NCBI GenBank assembly: GCA_000998275.1
Contig: LCDA01000004.1
Span: 4,360-68,359, forward strand
DNA: 64,000 nt
DNA from: Candidatus Collierbacteria bacterium GW2011_GWA2_42_17
Lineage (GTDB): Bacteria > Patescibacteriota > Microgenomatia > UBA1400 > MFAQ01
Direction of reading: 5' to 3'
Made by a program: the position numbers and the translations under genes. The notes under the pieces were generated by a model, which made no database searches, had not been told where the DNA came from, and saw nothing but the letters and a program-made list of their open reading frames with translations. Shown here piece by piece: positions 2,196 through 34,141 of the stretch (position 1 is the first letter of the stretch; every line of letters starts with the position of its first letter).

Positions 2196-2343
2196 CCAAA
2201 CAAATTATAGTCTAAGTGACATAGCAAAATTGGGCTATGTCAGACAGGGACCGTGTCCCCTGGCTCATCTTTGGAGATCTAATCCCAACACCTAAACACA
2301 TAAGAGAACCATATCTTCTGCCTCCAATAAGTACAAATGTGTA

Positions 2344-3096
2344 TTACTTAAAATCTCTTACACATCTATACGCTTGGAGTAATGGAACGTAGTTTGCTTT
2401 CACTTCATTTCCCGTTGCCAACTGAAAAATTATATGACATTGTCCATTTTTTGACACCCAGCAACGTTCATACTCGCTTGTTGTTGCTGTCCACCAAACC
2501 GAAAAGTTTGGTGACCAAACTCTATTTGCTTTGGCTACCTCTCGAGTTTCCTCCAATGTTGGCAATCTCCATATATTTTGCTGGCTGTTTACTAAATTTT
2601 TACCCTCTTTATCTAGATGAGAACATGTTTCGCTAGCTTTGTCCCAACTGGTTCCATTTACCCATCCCAGCCAGGGAATTAAGTGGTTACCCGGAAAGTC
2701 TGTAGGTACAATCGGAAAACCAGGACCCGGGGGTGCCAATTCTATTGTTTTTTTCTCCCAGCTCACTTTCGCCTCAAATTTAGAAGTGTTTCCATAAATA
2801 TAAACAACCTCTGAAATTATCCCTGTTGCAGTCAATGCCTGTGGTAGTAAAACCAAAAAATAAATTGCAATTTTTGACCACCCCTTTGCTTTTCTGTCCA
2901 TACATGAAGCTACAAATATCAAGGCGGTTGTACAAACCAACCATAGTGCCCCGAAAAATTCAAAGTCCGAGATATACACCCTTTCAAAATATTCTGCGAT
3001 CGCCGCACTCCCAAAATAAAACGTTAAGAAGGATAGTAAAAGTAATAAAATAAAAAGAAGACTCCAGTTTACAACCTCCTTTGTCCTAAACCACAT
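2344..3096 (-). CDS. membrane protein with DUF1566 (Lcl C-terminal)-like domain
   Basis: Two N-terminal TM helices. The C-terminal domain contains WRLPTLEE..., a WxLPTxxEL signature characteristic of DUF1566. Confidence 0.4.
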   Translation of the reverse strand: MWFRTKEVVNWSLLFILLLLLSFLTFYFGSAAIAEYFERVYISDFEFFGALWLVCTTALIFVASCMDRKAKGWSKIAIYFLVLLPQALTATGIISEVVYIYGNTSKFEAKVSWEKKTIELAPPGPGFPIVPTDFPGNHLIPWLGWVNGTSWDKASETCSHLDKEGKNLVNSQQNIWRLPTLEETREVAKANRVWSPNFSVWWTATTSEYERCWVSKNGQCHIIFQLATGNEVKANYVPLLQAYRCVRDFK

Positions 3097-32761: not shown

Positions 32762-32797
32762 GAACTCTATTGTACTAAACCTAGATGCTTTTAAAAG

Positions 32798-32874
32798 TAG
32801 CGGGGGCGGGAGTCGAACCCGCGAATTCTCCGGTTTATGAATCCGGCGCTTTGAACCAACTAAGCTACCCCGCC
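32798..32874 (-). tRNA. tRNA with CAU anticodon (Met / initiator / Ile2-lysidine type not resolvable)
   Basis: Minus-strand read: GGCGGGG-TA-GCTT-AGTTGGTTCA-AAGC-G-CCGGA-TTCATAA-ACCGG-AGAATTC-GCGGG-TTCGACT-CCCGC-CCCCGCT-A. T-arm GGGTTCGACTCC, anticodon loop TT-CAT-AA. Atypical features: A31.A39 mismatch, 7-nt variable region, G1.U72. CCA is not encoded. Confidence 0.7.
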
Positions 32875-32881
32875 AAACATG

Positions 32882-33430
32882 CTATATTTTATCACTTAAC
32901 TGAGCTCTAGCCACACCCGCAATCCACCCTCTCATTTTTCTTAGGATATTAATGCTTTTTCTTACTCTTATCCTCAATACTCCAAAATATCTATCATTAT
33001 TTAAATAAACCCGATTTTGCTTCGATTTCTGATAAAACGGCTTCACAAATTGGTCGATACCAACACCTAAGCTATCCGACCAATGTTGTTCCATTTCTTT
33101 AATTTTGTCAGAATACTTAATATTCGCTGTTACTCTAAAACTTAACCTATCATTCCTAATATCCAAACATTCCTTAAGCCAAGCTAAATACAATTTAGCC
33201 ATATTTTCGTCCATCGTTGCCAATCCTAATGAACTTTCGTCTTTATGTTTAAAACCTTCAGCCCAATATAAAGATACCCCAATTAAAAATAACTCTCTTT
33301 TAGTCAGTTTTCCTACTTCGATTACTCCCTTGTCAAAAGTTTCACTCTCAAACATCAACCTCATTTTTGTCCTTTCAGTCTGATATTTCCTTCTCCCGGA
33401 CTGAAGTTTTTCGAATAATTCCTTGGTCAC
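32882..33430 (-). CDS. possible LAGLIDADG-type homing-endonuclease-like protein (single motif)
   Basis: 182 aa. Residues about 46-58, LFLIGVSLYWAEGFK, resemble a LAGLIDADG block (hydrophobic-G-hydrophobic...xEG). Size matches single-motif enzymes. Lies directly beside the group I ribozyme core. Confidence 0.35.
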   Translation of the reverse strand: MTKELFEKLQSGRRKYQTERTKMRLMFESETFDKGVIEVGKLTKRELFLIGVSLYWAEGFKHKDESSLGLATMDENMAKLYLAWLKECLDIRNDRLSFRVTANIKYSDKIKEMEQHWSDSLGVGIDQFVKPFYQKSKQNRVYLNNDRYFGVLRIRVRKSINILRKMRGWIAGVARAQLSDKI

Positions 33431-33491
33431 AATTCATTTACCCATACATTACCCGAATTGTCAATTAGGCTCATTCGTGCTAAAATACCCA

Positions 33492-33753
33492 TGTTCGTTA
33501 ATTTGCGGGTGGAAGGTGAGTATCTTGCGAGGCTCAAATGGGCCGTTCAATGAGTAATTATTGAATAGAACTTGGCTATATCGGTGAAATCCTAGTGAAG
33601 GACAACGCCGAGGGAAGTCTCCGTCTATGACGGATGACCCCGTAGAGACTAAACGCCGAGCTCCTAGTTTAATAGGATGATGACATAGTCCGACACTCTG
33701 AGCAATCAGAGAAACAGTGCATAATCTCGCTTAACTGGGGAGCGTGACCCCAG
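33492..33753 (+). ncRNA. group I intron-like ribozyme (IC3-like core), boundaries approximate
   Basis: Plus-strand elements in canonical order. P: TATATCGGTGAAATCC (33577-33592), like Azoarcus AAUUCGGCGAAACC. Q: ACAACGCCGAGGGAAG (33602-33617), like GCAACGCCGAGCCAAG. R: GTAGAGACTAAACG (33642-33655), like GUAGAGACUAGACG. S: GACATAGTCCGAC (33682-33694), like Tetrahymena AUAGUCGGAC. P4 (TCGGTG/CGCCGA) and P7 (GACTA/TAGTC) pairings form. P6a, P8, a P9 hairpin with GCAA tetraloop (33696-33711) and P9.1 (CTGGGG...CCCCAG) ending at G33753 are present. Confidence 0.7.
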
Positions 33754-33763
33754 ACCCGCAACA

Positions 33764-34141
33764 CTATTTTAGAAGTGACCACCACTTCTCCCAGTTTTCT
33801 ACCTGTTTTTCTTCTTCTGTAGCCTCCTTTATAGCCAGGAGATCCCCTTTTGGTAATACCGCCACCACTTCTCCTATTTTTTGCATGTTCAGCTGTTCTC
33901 TAATAATCTTCTCTTTATATTCATCGGTCATCACCAGACTAAGTTTATCCTTTAGCATTTGATTCTTTGCTTCCTCCTCAACCAAACGAGTCTTCGCCTC
34001 ATCAATTCGAACATAACCCTTTTTTAACTGCCAAAGGTCTTTTGCTAAAGAAAAAATAAGTATCCAGGCAATAACTAAAATTATGCCTTTAATCCAGCCA
34101 TTTTTATCAGTTTTCTTGTTTCCTCTGTTTAAAGCTTGCAT
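33764..34141 (-). CDS. FtsB/DivIC-like septum formation initiator (single TM plus coiled coil)
   Basis: N-terminal TM helix IKGIILVIAWILIFSLA followed by a heptad-like coiled coil. 125 aa. Confidence 0.5.
   Translation of the reverse strand: MQALNRGNKKTDKNGWIKGIILVIAWILIFSLAKDLWQLKKGYVRIDEAKTRLVEEEAKNQMLKDKLSLVMTDEYKEKIIREQLNMQKIGEVVAVLPKGDLLAIKEATEEEKQVENWEKWWSLLK

Follow-up and report, generated by a model that had tools for sequence, protein, structure and literature searches.

Group I introns inserted between positions 33 and 34 of tRNA-fMet and tRNA-Met(CAU) genes have already been documented, including in tRNA-Met(CAU) genes of Patescibacteria (PMC13011429). In these cases, known from cyanobacterial tRNA-fMet as well as from Patescibacteria, the host is an initiator-looking CAU tRNA interrupted at U33/C34, and the intron has a small core of the self-splicing type whose P1 is formed with the anticodon stem and loop. 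None of the Patescibacteria tRNA introns in that set was placed in subgroup IC (PMC13011429). Some of the cyanobacterial tRNA-fMet introns encode a PD-(D/E)XK endonuclease. Other close systems are the IC3 introns of Azoarcus tRNA-Ile(CAU) and cyanobacterial tRNA-Leu(UAA), which have a compact core of about 200 nt, GNRA loops in L2 and L9, and an insertion site in the anticodon loop. In Azoarcus the intron comes after the anticodon, and in tRNA-Leu the anticodon itself is interrupted. In collaborative (trans) homing, a free-standing endonuclease gene acts with a nearby intron; in cyanophage S-PM2, for instance, F-CphI neighbors psbA, a gene that contains an intron, and in T4 mobE is paired with the nrdB intron (PMC3984707, PMC6083498, PMC2790892). 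Finally, GIR1 and other non-splicing derivatives keep a group I-like core.

The locus described here lies in a 64,000-nt stretch of DNA from Candidatus Collierbacteria bacterium GW2011_GWA2_42_17 (the window, whose numbering is used throughout). It very probably is an ordinary ORF-less group I intron of 185 nt in an initiator-like tRNA(CAU) gene that has its own promoter. In effect, the locus is explained as a standard tRNA intron and is not a remarkable free-standing ribozyme. It has in common with the documented 33/34 introns the initiator-looking CAU host, the U33/C34 site, the small core, and the origin of P1, but its host has non-canonical D and T loops and a 6-bp T stem and is missed by both ARAGORN and Rfam. 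Against the lack of subgroup IC assignments in the Patescibacteria set (PMC13011429), the window intron has neither P7.1 nor P7.2 and looks IC3-like by anatomy. In contrast to the cyanobacterial introns that encode an endonuclease, the window intron has no ORF, and a LAGLIDADG-like gene lies outside the tRNA gene. The likeness to tRNA-type introns noticed in the initial annotation was right: the compact core, the GNRA loops in L2 and L9, and an anticodon-loop site are shared with the Azoarcus and tRNA-Leu introns, from which the window intron differs in its insertion at 33/34. Its Q and R blocks are presumably near-identical to those of Azoarcus, as the initial annotation noted, and the resemblance as a whole is one of anatomy. 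Unlike F-CphI and mobE, the candidate mobility system of the window involves a tRNA gene of cellular Patescibacteria instead of a phage protein gene, a LAGLIDADG-like protein, and a presumed target site. With GIR1 the window RNA shares the group I-like core and, in a naive fold, a long-range pairing of the 5′ and 3′ ends; nevertheless, it has a normal P1, P10, terminal G, and host gene, and the long-range helices are tRNA stems.

The identification of a group I element on the plus strand was borne out by the covariance model that the initial annotation had proposed for this purpose. RF00028 matches positions 33525–33712 of the plus strand with 68.8 bits (E 2e-15), above its gathering score of 50, and syntenic and distant relatives score 54–80 bits; no other Rfam family matched in the ribozyme region. 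The Q (CAACGCCGAGGGAAG, 33603–33617), R (GTAGAGACTAAACG, 33642–33655), and S (ATAGTCCGAC, 33685–33694) blocks quoted earlier are all present on the plus strand, and the folding of the region is far above that of shuffled sequences (z = −5.7). Within this structure, P1 pairs GGCU/C (33531–33535) with the internal guide sequence GGGCC (33540–33544), with a U33534·G33541 wobble at the splice site, and P10 pairs AUG (33538–33540) with CAU (33720–33722). These are joined by P2 (33545–33566, with a GUAA loop), P3 (33571–33576/33655–33660), P4 (33581–33586/33606–33611), P5 (33590–33593/33599–33602), P6 (33612–33614/33639–33641) with P6a (33617–33638), P7 (33647–33651/33686–33690), P8 (33662–33666/33673–33677), and P9 (33696–33711, with a GCAA loop). 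P4, P7, P8, and the P9 hairpin form as first proposed. In an RNAalifold analysis of 15 homologs, 48 pairs were predicted, 17 of them with compensatory double changes; P1–P6, P8, and P9 were recovered, the P1 U·G was invariant (15/15 sequences), and P7, being a pseudoknot, lies outside this scoring. The intron looks IC3-like by its anatomy: it lacks P7.1/P7.2 and P5abc and has GNRA loops in L2 and L9.

The limits of the intron are set by relatives that do not carry it. A scan of metagenomes with a 5′ signature, whose pattern fixed 22 nt across the D and anticodon arms and consequently under-samples variation there, gave 119 occurrences, made up of 58 interrupted, 54 uninterrupted, and 7 truncated loci. 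The comparison of relatives proposed in the initial annotation thus found the element both present (58 loci) and absent (54), but the free-standing status suggested for it did not survive. The interruption falls at one identical point in all interrupted loci, and the same exon sequences are found both with and without the intron. When the window is compared by blastn with intron-less relatives, 33536 is joined directly to 33720 with an ambiguity of 2 nt. The boundaries are placed at 33535–33719 (plus strand) because the rule of a U before the intron and a G at its end settles this ambiguity, and precisely these 185 nt are missing from the relatives. Among 37 distinct homologous introns, all start with C and 35 end with G, as the window intron does with G33719; the other two (L072 and L145) have A instead. 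The insertion site is therefore between tRNA positions 33 and 34 (U33/C34), in the anticodon loop, and precise removal of the intron restores the host gene, as seen in the 54 intron-less alleles. The intron-less DNA of the anticodon region reads GCGAGGCTCATAATCTCGC, and one example of intron-less DNA contains the stretch GTATCTTGCGAGGCTCATAATCTCGCTTAAC.

Once joined, the flanks fold into a 73-nt cloverleaf with the anticodon CAU. The exons were delimited by intron-less alleles, blastn junctions, and covariation, and all their elements lie on the plus strand. The 5′ exon (33504–33534) comprises tRNA positions 1–33: the acceptor 5′ strand (33504–33510) followed by GG, the D stem (33513–33516/33523–33526) with a 6-nt loop UGAGUA and G26 after it, and the anticodon stem 5′ strand (33528–33532) followed by C32 and U33, with U33534 as the final exon base. 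The 3′ exon (33720–33761) comprises positions 34–73: the anticodon C34 A35 U36 (33720–33722) and then A37 A38, the anticodon stem 3′ strand (33725–33729) and then the variable loop CUUAA, the T arm (33735–33753; a 6-bp stem and the loop AGCGUGA), and the acceptor 3′ strand (33754–33760) with the discriminator A33761. On 30 distinct sequences, 99.7% of the cells of this cloverleaf are paired, against 32–54% in slid controls, and double changes are seen in eight pairs distributed over all four stems. The sixth pair of the T stem covaries as well (CG in 17 sequences, UG in 9, and UA in 4). The anticodon loop CUCAUAA, of 7 nt and with U33, is invariant, as is the discriminator A73. ACCA is encoded in many alleles; the window encodes ACAC, and CCA addition would therefore be needed.

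The elbow of this tRNA is non-canonical throughout the clade, with a D loop URAGUA, a T loop RGCGKNA, and G8, and with neither G18G19 nor TΨC. ARAGORN at default settings found no tRNA genes in the spliced sequences analyzed, and the Rfam tRNA model did not match an intron-less locus (L065) even at E ≤ 10. When its threshold is relaxed (-ps90), ARAGORN folds the spliced form into a tRNA-Met(cat). The gene is missed by tRNA finders because of its 6-nt D loop without GG, the T loop AGCGUGA, G8, and the 6-bp T stem; no description of such a tRNA type was found in the literature. The earlier statement that no tRNA could be assembled from the flanks was thus mistaken, as a cloverleaf backed by covariation and by intron-less alleles is present. 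Downstream of the gene, a hairpin AGAAGTG..CACTTCT (33771–33789) was considered as a terminator and rejected; it is not conserved, was not called in a scan, and is antisense to the C-terminal coding sequence of DivIC.

Several features suggest how the gene would be expressed. A predicted promoter on the plus strand (33458–33486) consists of TTGTCA, a spacer of 17 nt, and TGcTAAAAT, with the TG at 33478–33479 and the −10 hexamer at 33481–33486; it has 10/12 matches plus the TG extension of an extended −10 site. Homologous loci provide 82 distinct upstream contexts, of which 73 contain TGnTAnAAT, and this motif is invariant in a five-way alignment. Judging from the promoter position, a 5′ leader of about 11 nt (GUUCGUUAAUU, 33493–33503, plus strand) would separate the predicted transcription start from tRNA position 1; homologs repeatedly show GTTCnTT in their leaders. 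In the proposed pathway, the extended −10 promoter of the tRNA gene would drive its transcription, and the 5′ exon end GGCU would pair with the guide GGGCC to form P1 with the U·G wobble at the splice site, where an external guanosine would attack after U33534. The exon CAU would then pair with the guide AUG in P10, G33719 would take the G-site, and the exons would be ligated. The product would be a 73-nt tRNA from which RNase P would trim the leader and to which CCA would be added. Splicing, and also aminoacylation and formylation of the product, are activities that we infer from sequence features.

The host appears to resemble an initiator tRNA-fMet. Of 43 comparable positions, the host shares 28–32 with E. 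coli metZ, compared with 15 shared with elongator Met and 19–21 with Ile2. Host positions 2–6 and 67–71 are identical to those of E. coli metZ, and G2:C71, C3:G70, G4:C69, G5:C68, G6:C67, A72, A73, A11:U24, and G26 all agree with E. coli tRNA-fMet. The A11:U24 pair of the D stem is invariant in the clade; in E. coli this stem is GAGC/GCUC in metZ versus GCUC/GAGC in elongators. Position 1:72 forms a weak pair in the clade (U1-A72 in 22 sequences and A1-U72 in 7). The C1×A72 mismatch, within an acceptor stem CGCGGGG...CCCCGCAA, is found in the hosts of more distant homologs (L012, L161, and L163), and these intron-bearing hosts adjoin homologs of the same ORF that neighbors the window gene. At 29–31/39–41, where an initiator anticodon stem has a run of three G:C pairs, this tRNA instead has A29-U41, G30-C40, and G31·U39, the last being G-C in 2 of 30 sequences.

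That ORF, of 182 aa (32882–33430, minus strand), is oriented divergently to the tRNA gene and is LAGLIDADG-like. Its family has an LYWAEGFK motif that is invariant in 38/38 sequences, with an acidic residue preceding the Gly, and most relatives have an N-terminal HTH domain; no Pfam, NCBIfam, or PHROG entry matched the conserved domain of the protein. Beyond it lies a canonical tRNA(CAU) gene (32797–32874, minus strand), called by ARAGORN and Rfam and elongator-type, with C11:G24 and G1·U72. Such a neighbor is conserved: of 112 homologous loci, 96 have a tRNA(CAU) gene no more than 1.2 kb away, and the ORF is always located between both tRNA genes. The ORF shows a strong co-occurrence with the intron, a pattern seen in two gene orders, and each of four distant ORF homologs adjoins a tRNA(CAU) gene that is interrupted by a group I intron. 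This co-occurrence suggests a free-standing homing endonuclease and collaborative homing: the protein is a probable endonuclease, or possibly a maturase, and its association with the intron suggests that the putative enzyme may mobilize the intron in trans at a presumed target site. A literature search turned up no case of a tRNA intron with an endonuclease beside it.

The initial annotation had favored an element with no identifiable host gene and perhaps a non-splicing role; lariat-capping-like or permuted architectures, with the 5′ and 3′ ends forming a clamp, were considered alongside it. The minimum-free-energy fold does close the whole RNA by two long-range helices, a predicted promoter belonging to the locus lies some 10 nt before the first helix, and the plus strand has no called tRNA, rRNA, or ORF. 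Nevertheless, these two helices correspond to the acceptor stem and to the D and anticodon arms of a tRNA cloverleaf, which occurs uninterrupted in 54 loci and covaries as a tRNA; P1 with its U·G, P10, and the terminal G are normal and fall exactly at the indel boundaries; and RF00028 is the sole matching ribozyme family. The elements on which the free-standing proposal had been built also turn out differently. The 8-bp helix taken for P10 is the tRNA acceptor stem: ACCCGCAA is indeed at 33754–33761, but its partner TTGCGGGT lies at 33503–33510 and not at 33513–33520. The supposed P1 (CCAT/GTGG) is not conserved, with CCCT, GCTT, or ACA in relatives, and its CCAT is at 33489–33492 instead of 33488–33491. 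The hairpin at 33735–33753 read as P9.1 is the T arm, and G33753, thought to be the terminal G, is the last T-stem base. An intact CAU-tRNA host was recovered, the finding that the annotation itself had named as the mark of an ordinary intron; of its three suggestions, an intron whose exon context could not be seen was the correct one, and a free-standing ribozyme is now scarcely conceivable. A lariat-capping-like three-way junction, in which the strand CUCGCU|U on the 3′ side of P9 would serve as a permuted P1 substrate, was also considered. It was ruled out because its partial covariation proved to be that of the anticodon stem (GYGAG/CUCRC) and because alleles without the intron exist. Decay is a different matter, and the non-canonical elbow, the failure of tRNA models, and the two related introns without a terminal G could point to a splicing-dead intron in a tRNA pseudogene, with the functional initiator encoded elsewhere. 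This is very improbable, as the exons keep about 90% identity between lineages in which the flanking proteins share only about 55%, compensatory substitutions occur in all four tRNA stems, the intron helices covary, the promoter is conserved, many alleles encode ACCA, and the unusual T loop is kept as RGCGKNA without drifting.

Even with a functional host, its role may be other than initiation. The missing anticodon-stem G:C pairs and the paired 1:72 would fit an elongator Met tRNA, a lysidine-containing Ile2 tRNA, or a tRNA-like RNA with a non-ribosomal function, and the D and T loops, being atypical, could hint at such a specialization; altered-elbow tRNAs are known in non-ribosomal uses. 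The closer identity to E. coli tRNA-fMet than to Met and Ile2, the full initiator stem with C1×A72 in homologous intron-bearing hosts, and the elongator-type character of the adjoining tRNA(CAU) argue against a non-initiator, which is unlikely although it deserves some weight. Somewhat greater doubt attaches to the 182-aa protein, which might not mobilize the intron. It might act instead as a maturase in splicing or, given the N-terminal HTH domain of most relatives, as a regulator that binds DNA, or its gene might be an unrelated selfish element that inserted beside the tRNA by chance. The invariant acidic residue before the Gly of LYWAEG, the strong co-occurrence in two gene orders, the clean indel among near-identical relatives, and the four distant homologs that all flank a tRNA(CAU) intron make this the weaker reading, and the endonuclease the probable one.

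Taken together, the host and ORF readings lead to the tentative proposal, to which we give somewhat under an even chance, that the initiator tRNA of Microgenomates-type Patescibacteria evolved a degenerate elbow and carries an intron mobilized in trans by a free-standing LAGLIDADG-like family. Such an elbow would resemble that of mitochondrial tRNAs in lacking G18G19 and TΨC and in having a 6-bp T stem and G8. If this is true, an essential initiator tRNA gene is systematically absent from the annotations of Microgenomates-type genomes, and the host could be used to test to what extent a bacterial translation system can do without the universal D-loop/T-loop interaction. It would also mean that a previously unclassified endonuclease family carries out cellular collaborative homing at the pseudo-palindromic DNA of the anticodon stem, and that homing endonucleases, reported to be scarce among tRNA introns, appear so in part because only the introns themselves were searched. 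An endonuclease-like gene that lies beside the tRNA gene and outside the intron would provide a natural, non-phage system for the study of collaborative homing in cells. The locus also serves as a specific case of the "unknown loci" class among bacterial group I introns; such loci can conceal real tRNA genes missed by finders, and the tRNA sets of candidate phyla radiation genomes are consequently incomplete.

A scan of a genome collection with the 3′ signature GCATAATCTCRCTTAAC gave 43 loci, among which only six are recognizable as relatives, four with Patescibacteria in their titles and two titled Pseudomonadales MAGs; the rest resemble chance matches. The longer introns of Beckwithbacteria-type relatives have two additional hairpins between P7 and P3′.

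The plus-strand group I core described in the initial annotation is genuine. Rfam finds RF00028 at 33525-33712 (+) with 68.8 bits (gathering score 50, E 2e-15) as the sole RNA family that matches between the two minus-strand ORFs, permissive thresholds included, and the Q, R and S blocks quoted previously are found in the sequence. The folding of this region is also much stronger than that of shuffles (z = -5.7). Around the locus lie recF, fpg, ftsH, trpS, a DivIC-like gene and a XerD-like recombinase, gene surroundings that are typical of a candidate-phyla-radiation bacterium. Homologs of the 182-aa minus-strand ORF (32882-33430) occur in Patescibacteria metagenomes only, and contigs with relatives 55-80% identical to it have in common the order XerD, DivIC, gap, ORF, tRNA, TrpRS. 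The gap of every such syntenic contig holds an RF00028 match on the strand opposite to the ORF. Two MAG contigs in genome_contigs (L042 and L052), titled 'uncultured Pseudomonadales bacterium', have a Patescibacteria-type locus with TrpRS, DivIC and XerD in synteny and are probably mis-binned.

The host of this core was revealed by alleles that lack it. When metagenomes were scanned with the conserved 5′ signature AGGTRAGTATCTYGYGAGGCTC, 102 stretches were recovered, or 119 occurrences including earlier loci, among which 58 are interrupted (by 176-269 nt), 54 uninterrupted and 7 truncated. There is a single insertion point for all interruptions; uninterrupted alleles read ...UGCGGGUGGAAGGUGAGUAUCUUGCGAGGCU-CAUAAUCUCGCUUAACUGGGGAGCGUGACCCCAGACCCGCAAC, and the window's exact exon sequence is found both with and without the insert. 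In blastn comparisons with intron-less relatives, 33720 follows 33536 without intervening sequence, the exact junction being ambiguous by 2 nt. Because, by the group I rule, U precedes the 5′ splice site and G ends the intron, the intron is placed at 33535-33719 (185 nt). The joined exons (33504-33534 and 33720-33761) form a tRNA cloverleaf, which, with the intron-less alleles, refutes the proposal of a host-less or repurposed ribozyme: the element is an ordinary group I intron in a hard-to-see tRNA gene. A five-way alignment had displayed strong conservation and obvious compensatory changes, and a stand-alone or lariat-capping-like ribozyme was considered and dropped once the intron-less alleles appeared. 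In one apparent compensation, a pairing of GYGAG with CUCRC fits better than the minimum-free-energy helix.

On the plus strand, the joined exons provide an acceptor stem (33504-33510/33754-33760), GG between it and the D stem (33513-33516/33523-33526), G26, an anticodon stem (33528-33532/33725-33729) with the loop CUCAUAA and anticodon CAU, a variable loop CUUAA, a T arm (33735-33753) and a discriminator A (33761). Across 30 distinct sequences, 99.7% of the cloverleaf cells are paired, against 32-54% in slid controls, and two-sided changes are seen in eight pairs distributed over all four stems. ACCA is encoded at the 3′ end in many alleles. Several elements initially assigned to the ribozyme belong to this tRNA instead: the 8-bp helix called "P10" is the acceptor stem, the T arm had been taken for "P9.1", and the supposed terminal G, G33753, is the final T-stem base, the intron ending at 33719. 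In addition, TTGCGGGT, reported at 33513-33520, lies at 33503-33510, and CCAT lies at 33489-33492. The gene goes undetected because of its 6-nt D loop (URAGUA, without G18G19), a T loop of family consensus RGCGKNA (AGCGUGA in the window) that replaces TPsiC, a G at position 8 and a T stem of six pairs. In A3, the alignment of the host tRNA, T-loop positions 54 and 58 vary jointly (A..U or G..G), and the sixth T-stem pair covaries (CG 17, UG 9, UA 4). With default settings, ARAGORN found no tRNA in the listed spliced host sequences, drawing tRNA-Met(cat) on the spliced host at a relaxed threshold only, and the Rfam tRNA model gave no match at E <= 10 even on an intron-less locus.

When each stem and loop position is compared with annotated genes of E. 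coli K-12, the window-type tRNA has 28-32 of 43 positions in common with the initiator metZ, 19-21 with ileX (Ile2) and 15 with the elongator metT. Positions common to metZ include G2:C71 through G6:C67, A72, A73, A11:U24 and G26. Distant ORF homologs (35-49% identity) adjoin RF00028 introns of 62-80 bits, and the hosts at three related loci (L012, L161 and L163), which read CGCGGGG...GAGGCU / intron / CAUAAUCU...CCCCGCAAC, have the classic initiator acceptor stem with C1xA72. Among these distant hosts the T loops vary, being of canonical TPsiC type in L161 and in L162, UGCGAUU in L012 and CGCGAUU in L163. From these sequence comparisons, a derived initiator is the best reading of the window's tRNA, although the replacement of the three anticodon-stem G:C pairs by A-U, G-C and G.U, and the weak U-A or A-U pair at 1:72 in the window's clade, speak against an initiator.

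The intron anatomy follows from RNAalifold applied to 15 homologs that keep short stretches of exon at their ends. P1 consists of exon GGCU and the first intron base, paired with the guide GGGCC and with an invariant U.G wobble, and supersedes the P1 proposed earlier. P2 (GNRA loop), P3, P4, P5, P6, P8 and P9 (GNRA loop) are also predicted, with compensatory changes in 17 of 48 predicted intron pairs; the P7 pseudoknot (33647-33651/33686-33690) was assigned by inspection. P10 could form by pairing of the guide AUG (33538-33540) with the first exon bases CAU. All 37 distinct introns start with C and 35 end with G; the introns of L072 and L145 have the guide GGGCG and end in ...AAUA, and may be splicing-impaired or use a different 3′ splice site. 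Longer introns (217-269 nt) of Beckwithbacteria type (L026, L131, L143, L151, L157 and others) have two additional hairpins, similar to P7.1 and P7.2, between P7 and P3′; at a single insertion site, the family therefore includes both IC3-like and IA-like anatomies. Filtered scans can under-report RF00028 introns at these loci, since a 72-bit match in L012 was recovered with permissive filters but not in the gathering-threshold Rfam run, which used default filters.

Group I introns at 33/34 are documented in cyanobacterial tRNA-fMet and Patescibacteria tRNA-Met(CAU) genes, and in a recent survey "unknown loci" accounted for about one-seventh of the group I introns of bacteria (PMC13011429). The window's locus is of this kind, now resolved. 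In contrast to the published 33/34 introns, its host tRNA is non-canonical, and its intron is IC3-like by anatomy, whereas the survey placed no Patescibacteria tRNA intron in subgroup IC (PMC13011429). The survey also inferred limited mobility from the absence of ORFs inside tRNA introns (PMC13011429); here, however, an endonuclease-like gene lies outside the intron. With the ribozyme explained as a tRNA intron, it is the side findings that give the locus its remaining interest.

The ORF is adjacent to 39 intron-containing alleles and absent from 6 with both flanks adequate; for intron-less alleles, the counts are 3 and 26 (naive Fisher p 3e-11, for loci that are not phylogenetically independent). 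Two gene orders are seen for the adjacent ORFs, 21 being upstream and divergent and 18 downstream on the same strand; the ORF always separates the intron-bearing tRNA from a canonical tRNA(CAU) gene of elongator type, found <=1.2 kb away at 96 of 112 loci. Between near-identical relatives, presence or absence of the ORF amounts to a clean indel of ~530-590 bp, and intron only, neither and ORF only states all occur. In collaborative or trans homing, a free-standing endonuclease cuts intron-less alleles at the insertion site, and an allele that carries the intron is protected by it (PMC3984707), as for F-CphI and mobE (PMC3984707, PMC6083498, PMC2790892). The ORF/intron pattern agrees with what such homing predicts, and the anticodon-stem DNA would offer a natural pseudo-palindrome to a homodimeric single-domain LAGLIDADG enzyme; alternatively, the ORF may be a maturase or regulator. 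Its family (P0001-P0120) is unclassified, with an invariant LYWAEGFK motif and a putative LAGLIDADG-like fold; an N-terminal HTH domain is found in most members but is missing from the short version in the window. At L012, a Parcubacteria contig, a small GIY-YIG ORF (87 aa, 2252-2515 (-)) near the intron-bearing initiator tRNA and an HTH-LAGLIDADG-like ORF is a second nuclease-like gene.

G1 and U72 form a wobble in the window's canonical tRNA(CAU) (32797-32874 (-)), a candidate for either elongator Met or Ile2; its anticodon stem contains an A31-A39 mismatch, and its variable loop is slightly long. Compared with L100, an intron-less and ORF-less relative, identity is 78% over this gene, 87% upstream of the insertion site (33458-33536) and 100% over 126 nt downstream (33720-33845), a jump that could reflect a boundary of recombination or co-conversion at the insertion point.

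An extended -10 box, TGnTAAAAT, is invariant in the five-way alignment, and 73 of 82 distinct contexts have a predicted promoter of this type 17-25 nt ahead of tRNA position 1; thus, the tRNA gene probably forms a transcription unit of its own. Within 33431-33486, the divergent promoters appear to share one palindromic -35 region, AATTGTCAATT (TTGTCA on plus, TTGACA on minus). On the minus strand, a -10-like GTAAAT ~5 nt ahead of the GTG start suggests that the ORF mRNA is leaderless. Finally, the leader that follows the -10 box and precedes tRNA position 1 (33493-33503 and homologous leaders) contains a GTTCnTT(A/T)A motif, which is conserved across lineages and may relate to transcription start or RNase P processing.
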